A program made the translations under genes and the position numbers. From IMG/VR virus record IMGVR_UViG_2687453534_000001: a DNA stretch of 64,000 nucleotides. One strand, written 5' to 3'. The stretch is from a virus. Shown here in pieces: positions 30,227 through 64,000 of this stretch; positions within the stretch are counted from its first letter, which is position 1, and every line of letters starts with the position of its first letter. Under the pieces are notes generated by a model. It was given only the letters and a program-made list of their open reading frames with translations. It was not told the DNA's origin and did not search any database.

Positions 30227-31713
30227 CCACTGCAATCGCGCTGCCGTCGCTTCAATTGTCGAAGGACGAACAAGCCGTACTGATGGATCTGACTACTCAG
30301 CTCCAGAGGCACCAGGGCGAGAACCTGATCAAAGAGCAGTACTACGAGGCCAAGCGCCGAATGGAAGACCTAAAAATCGCCATTCCGCCAACGCTTTCCA
30401 ACCTGATGTGCTGCGTAGGTTGGCCCGCCGTCGCCGTTGACAGTCTGGTAGAGCGGCTGAACTTTGAGGGCTGGTCATACGAGGGTGACGGCGAGGACCG
30501 CGACCCGCTGGGGCTCGATGAGATCTTCCTGGAGAACGATCTCGATGTCGAGTCGGATGTCAACCACACAGACGGCCTGATGTACGGAACCTCCTTTGTG
30601 GCTGTTTCTTCCGGTCTCGATGATGAGCCTGAAGTGGTCGTGACGGTGGAGTCGCCGCGGAACATGACCGCGATCTACGACCCTCGGACGCGTCGCGCCA
30701 CCTCGGCGTTCTTGCAGATCGTTGACCGTGAGCAGCGGGTGGTAGGTGGGCGGTTGATACTGCCCAACGAAATCATCGCCCTGGAATGCGTTCCCATGGA
30801 ACTCAGCGCGGCGGGCGTGGGCAATATGCGTGTGGTCGACCGCAACAAACACAATCTAGAGCGCGTGCTTGTGGCGCAGATGATCAACCGGCCACGGTCG
30901 GGTGCGCGCGGCCGCAATGGTCACTCTGAGATCACCGAAACCCTTATCTCGCATACACAGTCGGGTATGCGGACCCTGGCCAACATGGAGGTGGCCCGCG
31001 AGTACTTGGCATCCCCGCAGCGGGCGGTGCTCGGCGCGAAGGAATCGTTCTTTGTCGGCGAGGACGGTAAGCCAGTCCCGGCGTGGAAGTCCTACATCGG
31101 CCGCATGATCGCGCTGGAGCGCGACGAGTACGGCGAGATCCCGGACATCAAGGAATTCAAGGGCGCCAGCCTGGAATCGTTCTTCGGCCAGATGCGCACC
31201 CTCAGCCAGCTCGTATCCTCCGAAATCGCAGTCCCTGCAAATTATTTGGGCTTTGAGACAGACAACCCGCCATCTGCCGACGCGATCCGGTCGCTAGAGG
31301 GTCGCCACGTCAAACGCGCAGAGCAGCGCCAGAAGACATTTGGCCGCGGCTGGTCGGAGACCGCGCGGCTGTGCGTGATGGTGCGTGAAGGCAAGAAGTT
31401 CAACGAACTGCCCGGCGAGATTCGCAAGGTACGCCCCCAGTGGCGCGACGCCGCAACGCCGACCTTCGCGGCCACATCCGACGCGGTGACCAAGCTCATC
31501 GACAAGGGCGTTTACACGCCGACATCGCGTGTCACCCGCGACAAGCTGGGAATCAGTCGGGCTGATCAGCGACAGATGGAGATTGACGATAAGAAGACGA
31601 CGGTCACGAACCTCGTCGCGTCGGTCCGTCAGGGTGTCGAGAATGCGCGCCAGGACAGCCAGGTAGCGTCCCTGGCTGACCGTAGAGCGGCATCTGTTGG
31701 CCAGCCTGGTTGA
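30223..31713 (+). CDS. Portal protein
   Basis: 496 aa following TerL with ATGA coupling. Confidence 0.85.
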   Translation: MTTAIALPSLQLSKDEQAVLMDLTTQLQRHQGENLIKEQYYEAKRRMEDLKIAIPPTLSNLMCCVGWPAVAVDSLVERLNFEGWSYEGDGEDRDPLGLDEIFLENDLDVESDVNHTDGLMYGTSFVAVSSGLDDEPEVVVTVESPRNMTAIYDPRTRRATSAFLQIVDREQRVVGGRLILPNEIIALECVPMELSAAGVGNMRVVDRNKHNLERVLVAQMINRPRSGARGRNGHSEITETLISHTQSGMRTLANMEVAREYLASPQRAVLGAKESFFVGEDGKPVPAWKSYIGRMIALERDEYGEIPDIKEFKGASLESFFGQMRTLSQLVSSEIAVPANYLGFETDNPPSADAIRSLEGRHVKRAEQRQKTFGRGWSETARLCVMVREGKKFNELPGEIRKVRPQWRDAATPTFAATSDAVTKLIDKGVYTPTSRVTRDKLGISRADQRQMEIDDKKTTVTNLVASVRQGVENARQDSQVASLADRRAASVGQPG

Positions 31714-34700
31714 GCAGGCTCAAGCGCTCCAGGGCGTTCTGGGTGATCTTACTACGCTGTCCACCAAAGATCTTGTGGGCCTGTACAAGAAGCTCGAAAG
31801 CGACGGCGCGACGGGTGCCGACCTGCTGGACGCGTTCAAGGCCGTTTTCCCCGAGGTTGTACAGCCCTACGTCGAGGCCGCATCCCAGGTCGCGAATCAG
31901 TGGTACGGGGAGCTGGCACCTGATGAGCCCTACACACCAAAAGCGGTTGACGCGATTGACGCGGTGCCACAAGACCGCATGATGAACTCGCTGGAGTGGG
32001 CGTTTCGCGCAGCTGGCACCGCTCATCCGCTGACCCGGCTGACGGGTTCGGCACAGCGCATGGTGTTCGACGGTGCTCGCGCGACGATTCTGCGCAACGC
32101 CGACGCCGAGAAGGTCAAGTACTCGCGCCTGGCGTCGCCGGGTGCGTGCGAGTTCTGCCGAGTGATGGCCACGCGCGGAGCGGTATACCGCAGCGCTCAC
32201 GCGGCGCAGGCCGGCCATGACAACTGCCATTGCGTGCCGGCTGTCGCTCGCGGAAAGCTCAAGTTCCAGCGTCCGGGGTATTACCAGGACTGGGACGCCG
32301 AGTACATCGACACGGTCAAACAGCTCGAAGCTGAGCAGATCAAGCCGACGCTCAACGCGGTCCTGTCGAAAATGCGGGCCAACGAACTGGCCGCGTCAGA
32401 CAGCGGGCCAACACTGGTAGCGATGTCTACCAAGAAGTCACCGGCGCCAGCAGACATGGCCAAGTGGCTTGATGCCGAGAAACAGCATCAGTACGACGTG
32501 TCAGCGTGGTTGTCGGCCGAGAAGAGTCACACCAAGAAGTTGGCCAAGGCCGCGGCGCAGGCCAAATACGTGGCCAAGAAGAAGGCGACCGCCGAATGGC
32601 TGGCGGCCGAGCAGCAGCACCAGGCCGACGTGTCGGCGTGGCTGGTGGCCGAGAAGGACTTCACCAAGAAGAAAGCGAAGGCGGCGGCGCAGGCCAAGTA
32701 TGTGGCCAACAAGAAGGCCGCCGCCAATACCGTCGCGTGGCTCAAAGCCGAGCAGGTCTACAACGAACAGCAGACATTGCTTGAGATGGCAGCCGAGGCA
32801 GCCAAGGCATCCGCGAAGGTCGCCGCAATGGCCAACGCGGCGGCGAACGTCGATCTCAAGAAGGCGTCCAAGGCGCTGGCGGCGGCCAAGCACGCGGCGA
32901 AGAAGAAGGGCGACACCACCAAGTACGACGCACTGGCCAAGATGACACCCGCCGAGTATGCGGCATCCAAGGGTGGGGTGGCCGCGCCGAAAGCCACGAC
33001 AACGATCACCGCGAAGGTCACCACCCCGGAGACCGCGGCGACGGCGGGCATCGGCACCGTCAGCACCGCCACCAAGCCCAAGGCTGTCGTTGGTGCGCTG
33101 ACCGACTCACCGAGCGCTCTCGCCAGCACCGGCCAGGTTCTCGGTACTCACGGCGCCACCGTGTACACCGACTCCACGTCTCAGAAGTGGTTGGTCAAGG
33201 GTCCCAAGAACCCGAATGATCAATTCCTGGTCACGCTGGATGCGGCATCCGCTGAGCTGCAAGCGAAGTCGGGCTTGACTACACCGGCGATGTACATCAT
33301 GACGGTAGGCGGCAAGCGTCAGTCCGTTCAGTACATGTTCCCCGGCAGCAAGAGTGCCTTTCCTTCTGGGGTTGACCTGTCCACAATCAGTGAACCTGAT
33401 CTGTTGACGATCCAGAAGCATCACGCGCTCGACTGGCTGATGGGTAACCACGACAGTCATGCCGGGCAGTTCATCCGTGCTGGTAGCGGTGAGATTGTCG
33501 GAATCGACAAGGGCCAAGCTTTCAAGTATTTCACCGGCGACAAGCTGGACTGGAACTATCACCCCAACGTCAAGCACGGCACGCCAGAACCCATTTACAA
33601 CACGCTGTTTCGACAGTACGCCGAAGGCAAGCCCGGTAAGTTGCTCAATCCCTCGGGCGGCGAGCTAGCGGACTACATCCAAGGTCTACAGGCGATCCCA
33701 GACAAGGAGATCCGCAACCTATTCCGGCCCTACGCCGAGGGTGCGGTCAAACAGGGAAAGCTGTTGGTCGAGGCCAACGGTAGCACTCCGACGAACAATG
33801 TTGACGCGTTCCTAGAAGCCGTTGTTGCCAGAAAGAACGGTCTCGCAAACGATCTGAGCGCGTACTACGTCAAGGCTGTCGAAAAGCGCCTGACGAAAAC
33901 CAAAGTCAAGGGTGAGGTCACCACCGTGACGCCGGGGATGACCATCACGCAGGGTGACTTCCTACCACCAACTCCGATCCCGACTGGTCCGACGCCGGTC
34001 CTGTCTGGAGACGCGCTCAAGAAGGCTGGTAAGGCGCTCGCATCAGCCAAGTACCTGGCGAAGAAGAAGGGGGACACCGCCAACTTCGCTCAACTGTCGA
34101 AGATGACACCCGAGCAATACTGGCAGATGAAGAACGGCAATGGGCCTAGCCAACCTGTTGCGGCACAGTCTGTTACGAAGCCTGCGAAGGGGACAAAGTC
34201 CGCCAAGTTACTTGAATGGGAAAAAGAATTCCTGAAGACGTCCGGGTCGAGTGGGTTCTTCCAGCCTGTCAAGGCGTACGCGGTCGAGAAGGGTATCAAG
34301 CTCTCCGAGGCCATCCCCGAATTCGACAAAGAGTTCGGTATCGCGGCGCTCACCACTGATCAGTTGGCGAACCTGCTGGGCTACTACGACGTTGGGGTCC
34401 AGACCAAATGGCTCGGCAAGTACGGTGACGCACTCGGCGACGACATGGCCAAGAATGTGCTGGACAAGCTCAAAGCCCAGGGTAACTCCAAGATCAAAGA
34501 ACCTCCGAAACCTGTTGTCATTAAACAGGGGACGAAGTACACCCCCGAGCATGAGCAGCCCGCGGGCGAGCTGGCCAAGCTCGGCAAGACGGTTATCGCC
34601 AACTCCAAGGCCCCCGTCGGATCTGCCGACAACCCGCACGTTTTCGATGCCAGCGGCAAGGCGGTTGAGTGGCAGCAGTTCGGCTCGCTGATGTCGCCAC

Positions 34701-35254
34701 AGAATGCCTCGGCTTGGAAATCCGACCAGCACAGTGCCATCAAGTCGTACACCGGCAGCGGCTACAGCACAATGAACGCACACGCTCGCGAAGACAAAGT
34801 GCCGTCAGCCAAAACCAAGGCGCTCGATTCGGCGTTCTACGAGCACAATCCGTTTGAGGAGCACATCGTGCTCAGCCGCGGTACGCACGCTGTCGAGTTC
34901 AACGACGAGAACAGTCTGGGAATGAAGTTCAGTTTCGGCGCTGACATCGATGCGCTCAAGGTGCTGGAGGGTGAGACGTACATCTCCAAGTCCTTCCTGT
35001 CCACGTCGATCACCACCACGCCGGCATTCCACAACCCGGTTCGCGTGCTCTACAAGATGAAGCCAGGTCAGCGCGGCATCTTCGTCTCGGGTACACCAGA
35101 CGGAATGGATCAACTGACCTCCGTCGGAACCCACGAGCGCGAGGTTATCCTTCCCCGTAACCAGAAGATGAAGGTGCTGGAAGTGCGCAAGTCAACCGGG
35201 TCGTCACAGTTCAAGGTTGACGTGATCGTGGAGGTGGTGGATCAACCTGTCTAA
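31697..35254 (+). CDS. MuF-like head morphogenesis protein fused to Lys/Ala-rich repeats, an atypical kinase-like segment and a C-terminal R-S-E ADP-ribosyltransferase domain
   Basis: MuF region CEFCRVMATRGAVY...HDNCHC. Repeats about 32460-32780, 32860-32980 and 34020-34140. ART motifs Y-x-x-x-x-Y..N, SRG (Arg), FLSTS (STS) and HEREV (ExE) in the last 200 aa. Confidence 0.85.
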   Translation: MASLVEQAQALQGVLGDLTTLSTKDLVGLYKKLESDGATGADLLDAFKAVFPEVVQPYVEAASQVANQWYGELAPDEPYTPKAVDAIDAVPQDRMMNSLEWAFRAAGTAHPLTRLTGSAQRMVFDGARATILRNADAEKVKYSRLASPGACEFCRVMATRGAVYRSAHAAQAGHDNCHCVPAVARGKLKFQRPGYYQDWDAEYIDTVKQLEAEQIKPTLNAVLSKMRANELAASDSGPTLVAMSTKKSPAPADMAKWLDAEKQHQYDVSAWLSAEKSHTKKLAKAAAQAKYVAKKKATAEWLAAEQQHQADVSAWLVAEKDFTKKKAKAAAQAKYVANKKAAANTVAWLKAEQVYNEQQTLLEMAAEAAKASAKVAAMANAAANVDLKKASKALAAAKHAAKKKGDTTKYDALAKMTPAEYAASKGGVAAPKATTTITAKVTTPETAATAGIGTVSTATKPKAVVGALTDSPSALASTGQVLGTHGATVYTDSTSQKWLVKGPKNPNDQFLVTLDAASAELQAKSGLTTPAMYIMTVGGKRQSVQYMFPGSKSAFPSGVDLSTISEPDLLTIQKHHALDWLMGNHDSHAGQFIRAGSGEIVGIDKGQAFKYFTGDKLDWNYHPNVKHGTPEPIYNTLFRQYAEGKPGKLLNPSGGELADYIQGLQAIPDKEIRNLFRPYAEGAVKQGKLLVEANGSTPTNNVDAFLEAVVARKNGLANDLSAYYVKAVEKRLTKTKVKGEVTTVTPGMTITQGDFLPPTPIPTGPTPVLSGDALKKAGKALASAKYLAKKKGDTANFAQLSKMTPEQYWQMKNGNGPSQPVAAQSVTKPAKGTKSAKLLEWEKEFLKTSGSSGFFQPVKAYAVEKGIKLSEAIPEFDKEFGIAALTTDQLANLLGYYDVGVQTKWLGKYGDALGDDMAKNVLDKLKAQGNSKIKEPPKPVVIKQGTKYTPEHEQPAGELAKLGKTVIANSKAPVGSADNPHVFDASGKAVEWQQFGSLMSPQNASAWKSDQHSAIKSYTGSGYSTMNAHAREDKVPSAKTKALDSAFYEHNPFEEHIVLSRGTHAVEFNDENSLGMKFSFGADIDALKVLEGETYISKSFLSTSITTTPAFHNPVRVLYKMKPGQRGIFVSGTPDGMDQLTSVGTHEREVILPRNQKMKVLEVRKSTGSSQFKVDVIVEVVDQPV

Positions 35255-35273: not shown

Positions 35274-35642
35274 TTGCCCAACGGCGTATACGACATCATC
35301 AGCGCCGAGCTGGGCGCGTTCTATGACCAGCCGGATTATCCCGGCGCACGCACTGGCGCTGGGCGTTACGTCGACCTCTTTCAGGACCCGGAGCTGGAAC
35401 ATCCAGTCGGGCGACTCTGGACCAACGACAAAGACGCCTGCGGTCTGCTGCATGTGGCAGACGGCGATGAGGTGCTGTACGCCTACGTTGCGCTATCAAT
35501 TCGTCGCGAGCTACATCAGGGGAGTGCCGCGAAGAACACCTTTGAGCACATGTGCGCAGAGTGGAATGAAGACGGCACGCTTACGACGACAAATCTCGCG
35601 GATATTGAAGACTCCGCGATTGCACTCAACGCAGACCTGTAG
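35274..35642 (+). CDS. Hypothetical acidic protein immediately downstream of the MuF-ART gene (candidate immunity/inhibitor)
   Basis: TTG start. GC3 about 70%. Followed by a strong terminator. Confidence 0.5.
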   Translation: MPNGVYDIISAELGAFYDQPDYPGARTGAGRYVDLFQDPELEHPVGRLWTNDKDACGLLHVADGDEVLYAYVALSIRRELHQGSAAKNTFEHMCAEWNEDGTLTTTNLADIEDSAIALNADL

Positions 35643-57787: not shown

Positions 57788-57871
57788 CGCTACCAAAACT
57801 GTAGGACATGAACTGTCAACTACCGGGCTACATTCAGCTCTGAGACCCCGTTATCCGAGCCTGGAGTAGAG

Positions 57872-59050
57872 ATGCCCGATCTGTCATTCACCATGGACCG
57901 CGACGCGTTCACAGAGGCTGTCACGTGGGCCGCACGCATCATCCCCGGTAAGCCACAGACGCCCATCCTGGCGGGAATGCTGGTGACGGGAGGGCCATCA
58001 GGACTGACGCTGAGCAGCTTCGACCTGGATGTGAGCGCCGAGATCGGCCTACCAGAAGCGCAGCAGGTGACGCCGGGTAGCTCTCTGGTCAGTGGCCGAC
58101 TGCTCGCGACGATCGCCAAGGTGCTGCCACGCAAGCCGGTCACCTGGACCGACAACGGTTCAACCGTGGCCATCCAGTGCGGCAAGGTTGACTTCAGTCT
58201 CCCGACAATGGTCGCCGACCAGTATCCCGTGCTGCCGGTGCTGCCCGAGGACACCGGCACCGTGAGCGCCGACGAGTTCAGCCATGCGGTCACGCAAGTG
58301 ATCGGCGCGGCCAGCAGCGACGAGGCCAAACCCGGTCAGATGTGCGTGAGCCTGGAGATCACCAGTCAGTCCACACTGACACTCACGACAACCAACGGCC
58401 ACCGGATCGCCATGCGTGAGATCGACTGGACGCCGCTGTCCGACAACCTGGCCATTGGGCAACGTTTACTGATCCCGACGCGAGCGCTGGCCGAGATTGG
58501 CCGACTCGGTGACGATCAGGTCTATCTCGCCATCAGTGGGAATGAAAGCGACGCACAGCTTCTCGGCATCCATGGCGGTACCCGACGCATGACTTCGCGA
58601 CTCGTCGATGACAAGTTCCCAAACTGTCGAGCCGCGCTGCCGAAGCAATACCTGACCACCGCGGCCGTTCTCGTCCCCGAGATCGCCGAGTCTGTCACCC
58701 GCGCGCTGGCGGTCACCGGCTCGTCGGCTGACAACCATCCGAGGATGAAATTGACCTTTGGTGACAACACGCTGAACGTCTACGCGAGCACTTCGATCGG
58801 CACGGTCAATGAGGACATTGACGTGCAGCTCAACGGAGAGCCTGAGACCGTGTGGATCAACCCCGTGTACCTCATGGACAGCCTGAATGCTCTCGACAGC
58901 GACAAGGCGACCATCGGCCTGCAAGGTGGTCTGCGCGGGTTGATGTTTGCGCCGGATGTTGTCGAGGCAGATGATCTTCTGGCCAATCCGCTTGCCGGTG
59001 AGACGATTCAGATGATCCAGCCGATTCGCCACACCGAACCGGCCACGTAG
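57872..59050 (+). CDS. dnaN: DNA polymerase III beta sliding clamp (DnaN-like), phage-encoded
   Basis: 392 aa. Preceded by the TCAACTACCGGG motif. Confidence 0.8.
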   Translation: MPDLSFTMDRDAFTEAVTWAARIIPGKPQTPILAGMLVTGGPSGLTLSSFDLDVSAEIGLPEAQQVTPGSSLVSGRLLATIAKVLPRKPVTWTDNGSTVAIQCGKVDFSLPTMVADQYPVLPVLPEDTGTVSADEFSHAVTQVIGAASSDEAKPGQMCVSLEITSQSTLTLTTTNGHRIAMREIDWTPLSDNLAIGQRLLIPTRALAEIGRLGDDQVYLAISGNESDAQLLGIHGGTRRMTSRLVDDKFPNCRAALPKQYLTTAAVLVPEIAESVTRALAVTGSSADNHPRMKLTFGDNTLNVYASTSIGTVNEDIDVQLNGEPETVWINPVYLMDSLNALDSDKATIGLQGGLRGLMFAPDVVEADDLLANPLAGETIQMIQPIRHTEPAT

Positions 59051-59061
59051 ATCGTTGGGAA

Positions 59062-59310
59062 TCAGGTGATTTCGCGAATCTCTTCCAAGATGTCTACGTC
59101 GGACTTACCGGTGGCTGTTGACACAGCGGAGAGAAGGATGCTCACCAATATCCTGAGTCCACGTGTCACGTCATCTTTGAAATTTGGATTACCAAGATCC
59201 TTCGCTAGATCGATCAAAGGTTCCGATTTCAGCTGCGAGACGCAGAGTCCAATTGCGAGATCGAGCGCTTCCTTCTCTTCATCTCTTTCTTCATCATCAT
59301 CATTGTTCAC
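59062..59310 (-). CDS. Small acidic protein in a low-GC (about 48%) insert
   Basis: MNNDDDEERDEEKE... Local GC far below the genome average. Confidence 0.5.
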   Translation of the reverse strand: MNNDDDEERDEEKEALDLAIGLCVSQLKSEPLIDLAKDLGNPNFKDDVTRGLRILVSILLSAVSTATGKSDVDILEEIREIT

Positions 59311-59450
59311 CGGGGGATTGTTTCACGAACCTTGCCATCGTGGGTTGCGATCAAATCGCTTGGCCCTCACATACCACCCCTGGCGGTTGTAGCGCTGGAA
59401 CCCGTCCGGTGAACCGGGTAACTGGCGCTCCCGTCAGGGGTGCCAAAAGG

Positions 59451-59495
59451 AGACGCCCCCAACCGCATTCAGTTGCGGTTGGGGGCGTCTTTTTC
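59451..59495. terminator. Bidirectional rho-independent terminator
   Basis: AGACGCCCCCAACCGCA-ttcagt-TGCGGTTGGGGGCGTCT, then TTTTCG. Confidence 0.7.
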
Positions 59496-59498
59496 GTT

Positions 59499-59933
59499 CT
59501 ACTGCCTGGTATCCAGTTCGGCTATGATGTCGGAGATTAGGCGACTTCCCGCCTCGATTCGATCGTGGACGCAGACAGCTCCTACACACGGGGGACCGTT
59601 GAATACCCTTTCAATCAGCCCTCCCAGTCGTGAGTCGCCAGACGCCATGTTGCCACCGAACATCGTCCACCGGCGCATCTGGAACGCCGAGAGCGGCACA
59701 AAATGCGGCAGCGCTCCGGGTAGATTTGGTCCGACAAGCACCACGGCGTTATCGCTCGTAGACTCCACAACCCGTGATCCCTCCGGTGGTGGAATCAGCT
59801 CACCGTTGAGGTCGCTCGCGATACCGACCAGTACCAGACGAGAATGCCGTGCGCTAATGCCATTCAGGGTGCAGTCAGGAAAGTCCGCGGGTCGCAAGAC
59901 CGTTAGTTCTAATCCCATCATTGTGTCAGTCAT
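59499..59933 (-). CDS. Unknown 144-aa protein translationally coupled to the ADP-ribosylglycohydrolase
   Basis: Start ATG at 59933-59931 overlaps the ARH stop (TGATG). The track ORF has a 26-aa N-terminal extension. Confidence 0.55.
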   Translation of the reverse strand: MTDTMMGLELTVLRPADFPDCTLNGISARHSRLVLVGIASDLNGELIPPPEGSRVVESTSDNAVVLVGPNLPGALPHFVPLSAFQMRRWTMFGGNMASGDSRLGGLIERVFNGPPCVGAVCVHDRIEAGSRLISDIIAELDTRQ

Positions 59934-60943
59934 CAGAACTCGTATCCTTCCGCTTCTGAAATCTCTTTCTGGTAGCGCGTTTCCAGCCGATCGAACCACT
60001 CGGCAGGCCATGGGTCGTCATACATCGCGCCGAGGATTGATCCCGCGACCGCCGCGATCGAGTCGCTGTCACCGCTCGTGACCGTCGCGCGGCGCAGCGC
60101 GGCTATCGGGTCATTGGGAAACAGATCGATGCAGAACAGCGCGCACGCCAGCGCATCGTGAGCGCGCCAGCCGGGGCCTGCGTGCTCACACGGATCGAGA
60201 TCCCACGGATCAGCACCAGCATCACGCAACTGGCGAAGTGCGATATCCGCGGTCAGCAGACGGTCCTGGACGAAGAGCAGACCGCGCGTCATGAACCGAC
60301 GCACGCCGACCTCAGCGACGACAGGGTGACCGTCGATCCAACGGTCAACATCCGTAAGTAGAGACGAATCATGATGTAGCCCAGTGCTTGCCAGATAGAT
60401 CGCCTCTTCGAGCAGCCGCCCTGGGTAGATGCTTCGCGCTTTGCGGATGATCGCTGCGGTTAAGAGCGACGCGGCGATGCCTGTCGCGCGTCCGTGGGTG
60501 GATGCTGCTTGCCACGCGGCGACCCCCTGCCAGCTGCGATCTTTGGTTACGAAAGCTGCGGGACTGACGCGCATTACCGTGCCGCATCCATCCGAGTTCA
60601 AAACGGTGGCCTTGGGCCAGGGGAAGTCGTTCTTCAACGCCCCGATAGCGCGCATGCACGTGTTGCCCGGTGCGCGGTTGTTGTCCGGGTCATCGAACCA
60701 CTTGATCCACTGATCGATGATCTTGACGCCGACCTCATCATCGGTCACATCTTTTGTGTCGTGGAGACCTCGCGCGAGCGCGAGCGTCATCTGAGTGTCG
60801 TCGCTGATGATCAGCTTCTCGGGCAGCTCTGGGCCCATTAGCCCGTTTTCGGTGAGCTGAGCGTACGACCTGAACTCATTGCGGTAGCCCCACGCATCGC
60901 CATAGGCGACACCACGGAGCACGTTGGACCATTTACTAGGCAT
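59933..60943 (-). CDS. ADP-ribosylglycohydrolase (DraG/ARH family)
   Basis: GAGGAA RBS. N-terminal GVAYGDAWGYRNEF and C-terminal GDSDSIAAVAGSILGA metal-binding motifs. Confidence 0.85.
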   Translation of the reverse strand: MPSKWSNVLRGVAYGDAWGYRNEFRSYAQLTENGLMGPELPEKLIISDDTQMTLALARGLHDTKDVTDDEVGVKIIDQWIKWFDDPDNNRAPGNTCMRAIGALKNDFPWPKATVLNSDGCGTVMRVSPAAFVTKDRSWQGVAAWQAASTHGRATGIAASLLTAAIIRKARSIYPGRLLEEAIYLASTGLHHDSSLLTDVDRWIDGHPVVAEVGVRRFMTRGLLFVQDRLLTADIALRQLRDAGADPWDLDPCEHAGPGWRAHDALACALFCIDLFPNDPIAALRRATVTSGDSDSIAAVAGSILGAMYDDPWPAEWFDRLETRYQKEISEAEGYEF

Positions 60944-61136
60944 TTGGTTTCCTCATGTGGAAGGGGACGCAGGTTTCGCATTCGTACTTTCCGGACTCAT
61001 CAGCGACGTACACACCGAGAGGTGTGGTGTGCCGCTTCGCGCTGGGCCGCTCCTTGATGGCGAAACGCATGTACATACCCGAGTGCTCGTCGCACGTGAC
61101 CATTCCGCCGTTATCGATCCAAACCCTCTTGGCCAT
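60936..61136 (-). CDS. Small Cys/His-containing protein (66 aa), first gene of the ARH operon
   Basis: MAKRVWIDNGGMVTCDEH...YECETCVPFH. Overlaps the ARH start by 8 nt. Confidence 0.45.
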   Translation of the reverse strand: MAKRVWIDNGGMVTCDEHSGMYMRFAIKERPSAKRHTTPLGVYVADESGKYECETCVPFHMRKPNA

Positions 61137-61160
61137 GAGCAGCCCTTTCGTCCGTTGTTT

Positions 61161-61230
61161 GGTAGACCAATCTACCGTATCACATTGGTAGAGCCGTCTA
61201 CTAGCATCTCGGTAGAATGAACTACCAAGA
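61161..61230. promoter_or_regulatory. Divergent promoter region with three GGTAGA-type palindromes; candidate -10 TAGAAT at about 61214
   Basis: GGTAGAccaaTCTACC, GGTAGAGccgTCTAC and GGTAGaatgaaCTACC. Confidence 0.45.
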
Positions 61231-61253
61231 CAACACAACATCAGAGGACACCC

Positions 61254-62051
61254 ATGACCGACGAAAAGATCGTTGACAAGATCGCAAAGCTGTTGCGACA
61301 GGCCGAGGATGTGGCAGGTACGCCCGAGGAGGAGGCATTTCAGGAACGCGCCTTCGCGCTGCTTGCCAAGCATGGCATCGACCTGGCGACTGTGCGCGCG
61401 CATCAGCGCGGTCTCGACATCAGCGACATACCGAACGCCATCGACACGCTAATGCTCGTTCATAGTCCTTACGCGAGTGAGCAGAAGCACATGCTGTCCA
61501 TCCTCGCGGAGGCGTTGCACTGCAAGACCGTTGGACTCAATGACATCCCGTTCGTGCACGTCTTCGGTATGTCTCACCATGTTGAGCGTCTACAGATGCT
61601 CTGGGAGATATTGCAACCACAGGCGACGCGCTTGGTTGCCAAAGTGCAGATGCCGGAACAGAAACGGGTTCAGAAGCTCACCCAACCCGAGTGGGCGGCG
61701 ATGAATAGAGCCGAGCGGATGAACCACCTGGTGGAGATGTCGCGCGAAATGCGCGCACCGGTATCGCTGCACGTCTACCGCCGGTCCTGGTTGATCGGGT
61801 TCGCCGCGTCGATCGCTCAGCGCATCAAGCTCCAGGAAGGTGAGGCCGCCGACAAGGCTGGCGTGGTCGCGCTGTACAAGTCCGACCGTGAGCGCGCTGA
61901 CGACGCGATGCGCGGCGCGTACCCGGACGCCGTCAACACGATGGTGGACCAGTTCAGTGACGATGGATTCAACCAGGGCGCGCGCGCCGGACAGACCGCG
62001 ACCATGGATCGGCCGGTTGAGTCGGTAGACCCTCTAGGTTTGCCGCGCTAG
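61254..62051 (+). CDS. DUF2786-domain protein
   Basis: N-terminal KIVDKIAKLLRQAEDVAGTPEEEAFQERAFALLAKHGIDL. Confidence 0.7.
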   Translation: MTDEKIVDKIAKLLRQAEDVAGTPEEEAFQERAFALLAKHGIDLATVRAHQRGLDISDIPNAIDTLMLVHSPYASEQKHMLSILAEALHCKTVGLNDIPFVHVFGMSHHVERLQMLWEILQPQATRLVAKVQMPEQKRVQKLTQPEWAAMNRAERMNHLVEMSREMRAPVSLHVYRRSWLIGFAASIAQRIKLQEGEAADKAGVVALYKSDRERADDAMRGAYPDAVNTMVDQFSDDGFNQGARAGQTATMDRPVESVDPLGLPR

Positions 62052-62087
62052 TAGCTTGCACTACCGGCCACGTCACTAGACTAAAAG

Positions 62088-62477
62088 GTGACAACTGGAG
62101 GACACTTCATGACCATGGCAACAGCTCCCACCAACGCAGCCGGATGGCTACGCGACAACGGTTTCAAGCTGTCTCGCGCAGCATCGGCGCGTTTCGCGGA
62201 CACGTTCAACGATCTTGTCGAGCGCTACGCAGACCCAGCGGAGTATCCGATGCGCGACGCGGCGATCATGGCTGCGGCGCGGTATCTCTCGGAAGAGCTG
62301 ACCCTGGATGATGCTGGTTTGGCGCTGGAGCGAGCGCGGAGCCGCGCCGACACGGGCATGGCCGTCGCGCGCGTCGTGGCGCTGCTGTCGATGGAGGACG
62401 GTCTGAGTGAGCATGGCGCACAGCGCGCGGCCCGCGTTGATCGTATGACGGTGCGGCGTTGGAGAGGGAAGCGGTGA
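62088..62477 (+). CDS. Hypothetical protein
   Basis: 129 aa. Confidence 0.5.
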   Translation: MTTGGHFMTMATAPTNAAGWLRDNGFKLSRAASARFADTFNDLVERYADPAEYPMRDAAIMAAARYLSEELTLDDAGLALERARSRADTGMAVARVVALLSMEDGLSEHGAQRAARVDRMTVRRWRGKR

Positions 62478-62761
62478 CCGACTATCTGGGTCTGACTGAC
62501 ATCTGCGCGTGCGGTCACGACCTGGAAAGCCACGACCTCGGCGACCCGCACCATCGCGCCGGCGCGTGCGCTGGCCATGAGCTGGACGGCCCGTGCGACT
62601 GCACGCACTACCGTGAGAAGTGTCGGTGCCCCGAGTGTGATGACCTGGAGGAGATCGAGGTCGAAGAGATGACCACGCGGACCCTGCTGACGACGCTGGG
62701 CGTGCTGGTCGGGTTTGGTGCTCTGCTCGGCCTGACGTTCGGGAGACTCATCAGACGCTAG
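62459..62761 (+). CDS. Cys/His-rich protein with a C-terminal TM anchor
   Basis: CACGHDLESHD...HHRAGACAGHELDGPCDCTHYREKCRCPECDD, then a hydrophobic tail. Confidence 0.5.
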   Translation: MEREAVTDYLGLTDICACGHDLESHDLGDPHHRAGACAGHELDGPCDCTHYREKCRCPECDDLEEIEVEEMTTRTLLTTLGVLVGFGALLGLTFGRLIRR

Positions 62762-62794
62762 ATGCGTCACAGTGGCGAAACACGTTGATACAGA

Positions 62795-62832
62795 AGCACC
62801 CCCGAGATTCACTCTCGGGGGTGCTTTTTTGT
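62795..62832. terminator. Bidirectional rho-independent terminator between convergent genes
   Basis: AAGCACCCCCGAGA-ttcac-TCTCGGGGGTGCTT, then TTTTTGT. Confidence 0.75.
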
Positions 62833-62846
62833 ATCTGCGGTGCGGA

Positions 62847-63986
62847 TCAGCTCTTCTTGAGCTTCAAGGTACCGACGTAATCATTGTCGTAATCCCGAAT
62901 CTCGAAGTCCGTCATGAGGTTCTGGATCTGATCGTCAATGGTCGGCGTGGCGATGCCCTCTTCGGCCTCAAACTGCGCCTTGAGCTGGTTATGTAGCGAC
63001 ACTGCTGCGCCAACCAGATCGGTGGTACCCAGCTTGTAGTTGGTTCCACCATTGAGCCGACCGATCGCGAACGTCTTGGCTCGCTCCAGAGCCTCGCGCA
63101 CGAACGCCGGATAGAAACCGACCACCACACCATCACCAAGCTGGATGGTCATCGCCTCATAGACCTTGTCGTAGTTCACGTCATCTGCAAGACGCTCGGT
63201 TGCGACGACGGCCTTGATCAGACGCTCAACACCGTTGCGGTCCAGCGCCGCGACCTCCACCACTGCATCGATGCGACCGGGACGGAGCATGCCCTTGTGG
63301 ATGCGCTCAAAGTGGTTGGTAGTCATCAGAAGTGCGACCTCGGACCCCTTGGATGTCACACCATCGAAGGTCTCCAGCAGCTTGGACACCTGATCCACGT
63401 CGCTGGTCGATGTCTGGTTGTCCACATCCTCGATGAAGACCACCGCGGGCTGGTACAACTTCGCCGTGCGGAGCACATCGTTGATGTCATCGCCCGGCCG
63501 TGCAGCGATGAAGGTCCAACCGTTCTGGACAGCCTCCAGCGCGGTGAGCTGACCGGCCGAGGTCTTCCCGGTACCGTACGGCCCCTCCAGCAGCAGCGCG
63601 CGCTTGATGCGCACACCCTCGCCTTTGAGCGCCTTGCGGTGCCGAATCACCGACCACAGAGTGCCTTCCAGTGTGCTCATCACTTCGTCGGAGAAGACGA
63701 TCTCACTCGGTACGATGGTCGCGAGGTTCAGGAACTCAGGTTCCTCGGTGCCGACAATCGCCTTGCCGCGATAGATCGAGTTGGTTTTCAGCTCCTCACC
63801 GATCGCATCCAGGAACTCACGCGCGATCTTGGCGTTCTTCTTCGCGGTGATGACGGTGACATGAGTGACGATTCCGTTGTCGCGATCGCGCTTGCCGCCC
63901 ACGGTGACCAACGTCCGGTTATCAACGCTGGGCAGGTAGACGTTGCCCCATGGAACTTCCAGGGTCTCCGTTGCGGAAATCTGCAC
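62847..63986 (-). CDS. AAA+ ATPase (classic AAA family); the N-terminus may extend past the window edge
   Basis: Walker A GPYGTGKT, Walker B VVFIEDVD, second region of homology RPGRID. GTG start at 63986 with an open frame to position 64000. Confidence 0.8.
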   Translation of the reverse strand: MQISATETLEVPWGNVYLPSVDNRTLVTVGGKRDRDNGIVTHVTVITAKKNAKIAREFLDAIGEELKTNSIYRGKAIVGTEEPEFLNLATIVPSEIVFSDEVMSTLEGTLWSVIRHRKALKGEGVRIKRALLLEGPYGTGKTSAGQLTALEAVQNGWTFIAARPGDDINDVLRTAKLYQPAVVFIEDVDNQTSTSDVDQVSKLLETFDGVTSKGSEVALLMTTNHFERIHKGMLRPGRIDAVVEVAALDRNGVERLIKAVVATERLADDVNYDKVYEAMTIQLGDGVVVGFYPAFVREALERAKTFAIGRLNGGTNYKLGTTDLVGAAVSLHNQLKAQFEAEEGIATPTIDDQIQNLMTDFEIRDYDNDYVGTLKLKKS

Positions 63987-64000
63987 CGTGCGGGTTTCCG

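Follow-up and report, generated by a model that had tools for sequence, protein, structure and literature searches.

gp86, an ADP-ribosyl glycohydrolase (ARH) encoded on the Mycobacterium prophage McProf, appears to be an active, metal-dependent enzymatic antidote to protein ADP-ribosylation by phage ADP-ribosyltransferases (ARTs) of the VIP2/Alt type, a role to which we give somewhat better than even chances. Its chief target would be the modification made by gp54, a capsid protein of the same prophage that ends in an ART domain, and the small protein gp55 would provide a first layer of protection. The genes lie in a stretch of 64,000 nucleotides, the IMG/VR virus record IMGVR_UViG_2687453534_000001, which is called the window here. 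Positions 57800-62800 of the window match Mycobacterium phage McProf (BK061309.1), a prophage of M. chelonae ATCC 35752, with 100% identity and 100% query coverage in megablast, and window positions equal BK061309.1 positions plus 942. The same search returned four more matches, all of them M. abscessus prophages of the MabR cluster. The ARH and MuF-ART genes are already annotated genes of a published prophage, with gp86 given in GenBank as ADP-ribosyl glycohydrolase and its neighbors gp87 and gp85 as hypothetical proteins. The features that matter most for the argument are the following.

31697-35254, plus strand: gp54, a MuF/VG15 minor-capsid and ADP-ribosyltransferase fusion protein of 1185 aa (Pfam, motifs, GenBank)
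about 34715-35224, plus strand: ART domain of gp54, with R1061, S1104 and E1147-x-E1149
35274-35642, plus strand: gp55, a protein of 122 aa from a family of small proteins that carry an LWTNDxD motif, directly downstream of gp54
59933-60943, minus strand: gp86, ADP-ribosyl glycohydrolase of the ARH superfamily, 336 aa (Pfam PF03747), the conserved core of its locus

gp86 can be assigned with confidence to the all-alpha ARH fold. It matches Pfam PF03747 (ADP_ribosyl_GH) over residues 9-308 with 167.7 bits (gathering score 26.2; E=6e-49), and reading of the sequence gives the motifs G15-D16, E23, D48-D49-T50, G93-N-T-C, M124-R125, T149-H150 and G291-D-S-D-S295. Across 77 homologues D16, E23, D48, D49, G93, M124, R125, T149, H150 and G291-D294 are invariant, and G15, T50, T95 and S295 are at least 90% conserved. 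The catalytic glutamate E23 and the DDT, TH and GDSDS motifs align with those of DraG, so the binuclear metal-site and catalytic motifs are all present, and the top PDB sequence match is DraG itself (2woe, E=6e-9). The preliminary description of this DNA, made from the letters, had called gp86 DraG-like. This holds at the level of the superfamily only, through PF03747 and the shared motifs, since the equivalog scores fall far under their cut-offs. gp86 was rejected as a DraG orthologue (TIGR02662, 49.6 bits against 337.05) and as a Tri1 orthologue (NCBIfam NF041672, 40.1 bits against 490). ARTs of the ExE type, such as VIP2 and iota toxin, are arginine-directed, and because the gp54 ART is of this type, an arginine linkage is the predicted specificity of gp86, whose enzymatic activity is likewise a prediction.

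gp54 is annotated in GenBank as a 'minor capsid and ADP-ribosyltransferase domain fusion protein', and its gene follows the portal gene. Its N-terminus matches PF25310 (VG15, 6e-37), and PF03496 (ADPrib_exo_Tox, 5e-16) covers residues 1007-1176. An N-terminal head domain, a C-terminal ART whose toxicity is presumed, and a small downstream open reading frame (ORF) give gp54 and gp55 the layout of the MuF polymorphic toxins, a class that Jamet et al. reportedly described in 2017 and that is said to include Bxa and Apk2. The middle of gp54 (residues about 480-790, 33134-34066, plus strand) contains, amid Ala/Lys-rich repeats, the stretch DWLMGNHDSHAGQF and a 'GNHDSH' motif. The stretch DWLMGNHDSHAGQF is reminiscent of kinase-like catalytic loops, and a comparison of this middle region with PDB sequences gave no match.

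gp55 is probably the tighter partner of the ART. According to tblastn searches with cross-checked positions, its homologues lie immediately 3' of the ART gene in 12 of 12 phage records, which include the five MabR prophages, Morgana, Sixama, Onyinye, Leopard and Aikoy. Pairwise comparison with Sixama gp76 (E=7e-14) and Aleemily gp133 (E=5e-8) shows that the LWTNDxD motif is shared. Onyinye, Leopard and Aikoy carry an ART and a gp55 homologue without an ARH. It is because gp55 is always adjacent to the ART, while some phages do without the ARH, that gp55 ranks before gp86 as a partner. gp55 is the likelier cognate inhibitor, a candidate counterpart of the Bacteroides inhibitor Bsi (see below) and a candidate ART-immunity family, and the ARH looks like an optional second layer beside it. 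The preliminary description, which took the ARH as a candidate antidote of the ART, overlooked gp55. No matches to gp55 were found in Pfam, PADLOC or NCBIfam. Two distant homologues from outside phages (P0276 and P0277) have no adjoining ART, and may be orphan immunity genes.

The association of ARH and ART genes extends well beyond McProf. In a tblastn census of 50,697 INPHARED phage records, the ARH is found in 28 records and a McProf-like ART in 81, and a divergent second ART query adds 38 records that partly overlap with these. VIP2-type ARTs are present in 59 Mycobacterium phage records. Both genes occur in five of five MabR prophages, in the Gordonia phages Aleemily, Morgana, ObLaDi and Cafasso, and in Sixama and GMA2. 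The Forza group also carries both, with a divergent ART that is PF03496-positive at 7e-18 and unseen by the McProf ART query; since that query alone missed it, the ART census is a lower bound. Altogether, 18 of the 28 ARH records have a PF03496-type ART, spread over five lineages (MabR and four further actinophage lineages), compared with a chance expectation of about 0.06-0.3 records, depending on the assumed ART total. The co-occurrence that the preliminary description had proposed to check is thus present. In Aleemily the gene directly after the ARH (L006 13007-13791, gp113-gp112) encodes 'HAF...DGNKRTA', which resembles a Doc/Fic toxin motif, and the small gene that precedes it could be an antitoxin.

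Metagenomic phages show the same association, and mostly in a tighter arrangement. The 79 ARH-bearing loci of IMG/VR were taken with 10-kb flanks, and their six-frame ORFs were searched with a profile made from four phage ART domains. An ART-domain ORF lies within 10 kb of the ARH in 30 of the 79 loci, and in nearly every one of these the ART domain is C-terminal in a protein of about 1,000-1,700 residues. In 24 of the 30 loci the giant protein and the ARH are encoded on the same strand, the giant protein directly upstream with a gap of 1-1.5 kb. An immunity gene adjacent to its toxin gene is therefore seen in these 24 loci and not in McProf, where gp54 and the ARH gene are about 24.7 kb apart on opposite strands. 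Pfam PF03496 was confirmed in five different architectures among the ART proteins, and one ART-ARH cluster lies 2 kb after a Phage_Mu_F gene. Four additional MabR-like contigs carry both genes about 25 kb apart, so that 34 of the 79 contigs have both. An intersection of contig names from pattern-based IMG/VR scans gave only 4 MabR-like contigs, and the local flank profile search is far more sensitive. Judged from these gene arrangements, the ART-ARH link is general in phages and the McProf arrangement is the unusual one. The core claim of the preliminary description, that the ARH is tied to an R-S-E ART, gains comparative support from the co-occurrence, the adjacency and the published ARH/ART precedents, whereas the dedicated three-gene unit it had placed around the ARH is not supported (see below).

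In many IMG/VR contigs, a conserved series of small ORFs lies between the giant ART protein and the ARH (L047 8858-9926; also L033, L043, L048, L060-L062 and others). They encode a protein of 66-68 aa with 'IDPxQQHLDDHYGD', one of about 108 aa with 'MKLGHxxDEIKY...ILDGEPTM...PRLHVLLGRLLRAA', one of about 145 aa ending in 'VLGCSRQWV', and sometimes one of 61 aa; none of these small ORFs has a Pfam match. One giant IMG/VR protein (L098 2716-5976) has Zeta_toxin and ART domains together, and gp57 of the ARH-bearing phage Phrappuccino (L019 38600-41866), a giant head-region protein, ends in a Zeta_toxin domain. Giant head-region proteins with Zeta_toxin and ART domains are consistent with polyvalent packaged effectors.

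The ARH gene is transcribed during lysogeny. RNA-seq identified 16 McProf genes that are expressed in the lysogen, gp85 and gp86 being named among them, and of the McProf genes gp84 shows the strongest expression (PMC9434293, PMC8191103). This published experiment answers the question of lysogenic expression that the preliminary description had raised. In the MabR prophages the ARH gene has apparently moved from the head-gene cluster, where relatives have it, into the lysogeny-expressed block of the right arm. The other features of the ARH locus are listed here.

59445-59495, minus strand: intrinsic terminator behind gp85, with a perfect, G+C-rich stem of 17 bp (59451-59490) and a T-tract after it
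59499-59933, minus strand: gp85, 144 aa, of the PF26991 (precomputed)/phrog_6045 family, an accessory gene coupled to gp86
60936-61136, minus strand: gp87, a CxxH...CxxC protein of 66 aa (direct sequence reading)
61137-61253, no strand: divergent intergenic region between gp87 (minus) and gp88 (plus), where the promoter of the ARH transcription unit is presumed to lie, as judged from the gene positions
61254-62051, plus strand: gp88, a DUF2786/DUF7168 protein, divergent from the ARH unit

The anatomy given in the preliminary description (three minus-strand genes, a ribosome binding site, a TGATG junction, a terminator and the metal motifs) is present in full. The start of gp86 lies inside the end of gp87 with an overlap of 8 nt, GAGGAA is found 5 nt upstream of the gp86 ATG, and gp86 and gp85 are joined by a 1-nt TGATG overlap. 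The terminator hairpin has a folding energy of -40 kcal/mol (z = -7.65), and 0 of 200 shuffles were equally good; a simple terminator scan did not pick it up. It is probably bidirectional, since an A-tract lies on its other side. A promoter scan of the gp87/gp88 intergenic region found no sigma-70 consensus, and there are zero matches to Rfam structured RNAs across 58900-61400.

gp86 would hydrolyse the ADP-ribose that VIP2/Alt-type phage ARTs put on protein, most likely on arginine, and the C-terminal ART domain of gp54 is its likeliest client. We infer that gp54 is made late, that its MuF-like domain takes it into the capsid, and that it is probably injected together with the DNA. In the producing cell, the ART is probably held in check by gp55 as a binding inhibitor, and gp86 would erase the residual modification that escapes gp55, with a protective effect for the cell. 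As the ARH gene is located in a block transcribed in the lysogen, the hydrolase would already be there when induction begins, and ADP-ribosylation from related, ART-carrying superinfecting phages would also be within its reach.

Several observations speak against gp86 as an antidote to gp54. The two genes are 25 kb apart and belong to different transcription programmes, and the accounts of lysogeny-expressed McProf genes do not mention the late gene gp54 (PMC9434293, PMC8191103), so that the ARH of the lysogen would have no self-made ART product to reverse. This suggests that the lysogen ARH is either kept ready for induction or may act on ADP-ribosylation from outside, such as that by the ARTs of superinfecting phages. 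Most ART-bearing actinophages, including cluster A mycobacteriophages, Gordonia GMA6, the Chidiebere group and Microbacterium phages, have no ARH. Conversely, no ART is detectable in the ARH-bearing Phrappuccino/Settecandela, in the Rhodococcus Trina group (tblastn and the 10-kb flanks of two contigs, L031 and L053) or in one faecal phage, and the giant head-region proteins in the first 50 kb of Phrappuccino contain no ART. ART and ARH do not co-vary in the MabR cluster, where the ARTs of McProf and FSIL01-1 are 98.6% identical and their ARHs 64%; an enzyme that acts on the product of the ART is not required to co-evolve with the ART itself. Finally, ARH1 and ARH3 score equally for gp86 in the fold search, which does not tell arginine-specific relatives from serine-specific ones, and neither sequence nor structure puts gp86 in an arginine-specific subfamily.

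A possible, though clearly less probable, role for gp86 is that of a prophage-borne defence, in which the lysogen would erase the arginine ADP-ribosylation made by injected ARTs of superinfecting phages and blunt their takeover. This would be a version of the ARG-centric host systems that have been predicted as a counter to viral ARTs (Iyer, Burroughs, Anantharaman, Aravind 2022, PMC9503650). gp86 is like these in being expressed without a co-transcribed ART and with variable small genes alongside, but the McProf genome carries its own ART. The transcription of gp85 and gp86 in a lysogen for which the ART gene is not mentioned as expressed fits a defence, as does the relocation of the MabR ARH next to lysogeny-expressed genes. 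The existence of phages such as Onyinye, Leopard and Aikoy suggests that gp55-type protection is enough for self-immunity, and the VIP2-type ARTs that are common in mycobacteriophages would provide targets. The chromosomal ARH homologues examined have no ART neighbor. One of them, P0074 of Streptomyces spiramyceticus (41% identical to gp86; L011 5267-7002), overlaps the end of a NUDIX-NrtR gene, with scpA, scpB and a pseudouridine synthase gene nearby, and is the only homologue with the translational Nudix-NrtR coupling that is a hallmark of the predicted host anti-ART systems (PMC9503650). gp86 itself has no such setting, since no Nudix or WYL helix-turn-helix regulator and no phosphatase is found in gp83-gp85 or gp87-gp91. 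PADLOC has no match for the ARH operon and no defence-system match for gp84-gp90 or gp55. The ARH also occurs, clustered with its own ART, in phages whose records give no sign of lysogeny, which points to self-service as the ancestral context. It is unlikely, and more so than a defence, that gp86 is unrelated to phage ARTs and acts on ADP-ribose conjugates of the host or of other elements, as a counter-defence or lysogenic-conversion factor, possibly in the whiB7/drug-resistance phenotype of McProf. Candidate substrates would be the products of host ART or toxin-antitoxin systems, ADP-ribosylated nucleic-acid ends, O-acetyl-ADP-ribose or soluble ADP-ribose derivatives, and ADP-ribosyl-rifampicin made by Arr. 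ARH-fold enzymes have diverse substrates between which the fold search does not discriminate, and some ARH-bearing phages have no detectable ART. The ARH-like SCO5809 removes ADP-ribosylation from phosphate ends of RNA (PMC11833690), and lysogenically expressed McProf genes are suspected of altering whiB7 expression (PMC8191103). However, such a role does not account for the strong association with PF03496 ARTs in phages, which is both statistical and positional. ARH-like enzymes are also inactive on base-linked and 2'-OH RNA ADP-ribosylation (PMC11833690), and viral ARG domains are argued from phyletic patterns to prefer macromolecular conjugates (Iyer et al., PMC9503650).

That the locus is one dedicated three-gene system, as the preliminary description had it, with gp87 as a zinc-binding regulator or adaptor, gp86 as the enzyme and gp85 as an obligate partner, is the most improbable of these explanations and is largely refuted by the distribution of the genes. 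The three genes are translationally coupled throughout by their overlaps and share a terminator. The prophage prophiFSQJ01-1 and the Gordonia phage Aleemily likewise have small Cys-rich ORFs upstream of the ARH, but the Cys-rich ORFs in this position are not homologous to one another. In the tblastn searches gp87 is restricted to three of the five MabR phages (McProf, prophiFSAT01-1 and prophiFSIL01-1), and gp85 is present in two of the five and elsewhere in 65 phage records, all without an ARH. A gp85 profile run over the 79 IMG/VR ARH loci matched an FSAT01-1-like contig only. In the other three MabR prophages, the ARH is coupled instead to a gene for a different protein, of 67-92 aa and with a 'SEPY...DGW' pattern. 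Roughly the final 15 residues of gp85 (GSRLISDIIAELDT, 59499-59550, minus strand) match the tail of one such protein, the otherwise unrelated gp83 of prophiFSIL01-1 (GGRLISDITTELDT, L010 3523-3801). The shared tail indicates a recombination junction at which one accessory gene replaced another, with gp85 keeping the 3' end of the earlier gene. On this distribution and this junction, gp85 was rejected as a dedicated ARH partner. gp85 and gp87 thus look like interchangeable accessory genes outside the ARH-ART mechanism, gp85 having been swapped in.

gp85 belongs to a family (PF26991 precomputed, phrog_6045) with 190 representative clusters at 50% identity. It is found in cluster K mycobacteriophages (TM4 gp76, L007 3501-3890; ZoeJ gp77) and large phages of Brevundimonas, Sinorhizobium and Methylophilales, none with an ARH. 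The AlphaFold2 model of gp85 is confident (pLDDT 92.8) and has no structural neighbor in the PDB, in agreement with the earlier remark that the 144-aa protein has no recognisable fold. Near-invariant positions in the family are R14, D20, G25, GG (93-94), DxR (100-102) and HDRxE (123-127), and the charged ones among them point to an enzyme or a ligand binder. The family is of interest as an uncharacterised, apparently enzyme-like group of phage proteins. gp87 has the Cys/His pattern C15-x2-H18 and C52-x2-C55, which can be read as zinc-ribbon-like, and has no match in Pfam, PADLOC, NCBIfam or PHROGs.

A prophage of Bacteroides stercoris encodes a MuF-ART, Bxa, that modifies arginines promiscuously, together with the ARH BAH, which reverses the modification enzymatically, and the small protein Bsi, which binds and blocks Bxa (Alexei et al., J Biol Chem 2024, PMC11699363). 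gp54, gp86 and gp55 map onto the ART, the ARH-fold hydrolase and the small adjacent blocker of this system. However, BAH and Bsi are encoded beside bxa, whereas in McProf 25 kb separate gp86 from gp54, and gp86 belongs to a lysogeny-expressed block. gp55 also has no detectable similarity to known families, the host belongs to another phylum, and the roles of the McProf proteins are predicted. Imm-ARG, defined as the only enzymatic immunity protein, goes strictly together with ART toxins of the R-S-E type (Zhang et al. 2012, PMC3482391); gp54 is such an ART in the same genetic element as gp86. Unlike Imm-ARG and the Tre1-Tri1 pair of the Serratia type VI secretion system (PDB 6dre), the McProf locus has no secretion-system context, and delivery would be via the capsid. 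gp86 shares the hydrolase superfamily and the metal-site motifs with the DraG of the DraT-DraG pair, which regulates nitrogenase, but McProf has neither DraT nor nitrogenase, and its annotation contains no DraT and no nif genes.

The Alt protein of phage T4 is a packaged and injected ART that modifies the host RNA polymerase, and to our knowledge T4 encodes no ARH to reverse this modification. gp54 resembles Alt as an ART of the Alt/VIP2 family that would be packaged in the capsid and delivered at infection; the difference is that McProf has an ARH as well as an ART. Fusion to MuF and packaging are frequent among Alt/VIP2 ARTs (PMC9503650). The same survey describes ARG domains that occur sporadically in actinophages and, in Aeromonas phages, an ART-ARG pair (Iyer et al. 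2022, PMC9503650).

The pairing of a toxin with an antidote is a known principle, and the McProf genes had been annotated before. What appears to be new is that the ART-ARH linkage recurs across actinophages and metagenomic phages, that the gp55 family accompanies the ART as an adjacent partner, that the ARH of the MabR prophages has been relocated to the lysogenic programme, and that gp85 and gp87 are interchangeable passengers. Phage-packaged ARTs are widespread, but only one case, that of Bxa, BAH and Bsi, shows how a producing or lysogenic cell deals with them. McProf in M. chelonae is a tractable system in this respect, as the hydrolase is expressed in the lysogen, and cured strains and RNA-seq exist. 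If the ARH of a lysogen does block ART-dependent phages, the erasing of a viral modification would be a new defence principle, and gp86 would be the first concrete example of an anti-viral-ART immunity so far predicted from genomics only. This could affect the choice of phages for therapy of M. abscessus strains with MabR prophages. If the ARH protects the producer only, it would be a further member of the known toxin/antidote scheme.

Other genes near the ARH unit include an ORF at 59062-59310 (minus strand), which has 31 extra upstream codons back to a GTG at 59310. These codons are conserved at the protein level with prophiFVLQ01-1 gp85 (RDEE..ALD.A..C..Q..EP), and the true length of the product is probably about 75-82 aa. 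The ORF lies just beyond the strong gp85 terminator, and would need its own promoter. gp91 (62847-64000, minus strand; the full gene is L001 12048-13628) is a lysogenically expressed AAA-ATPase with a weak similarity only to the anti-phage ATPase IetA/IteA (PADLOC 1.3e-5; NCBIfam 9e-4, far under the cut-off). A DUF2786/DUF7168 protein like gp88 is encoded 1.3 kb from the ARH homologue on a Kitasatospora chromosome (L015 6324-7622), and a MerR plus sliding-clamp-like gene is located close to the ARH homologue of a Nocardia (L016). These neighbors of ARH homologues could be prophage remnants or a recurring neighborhood.

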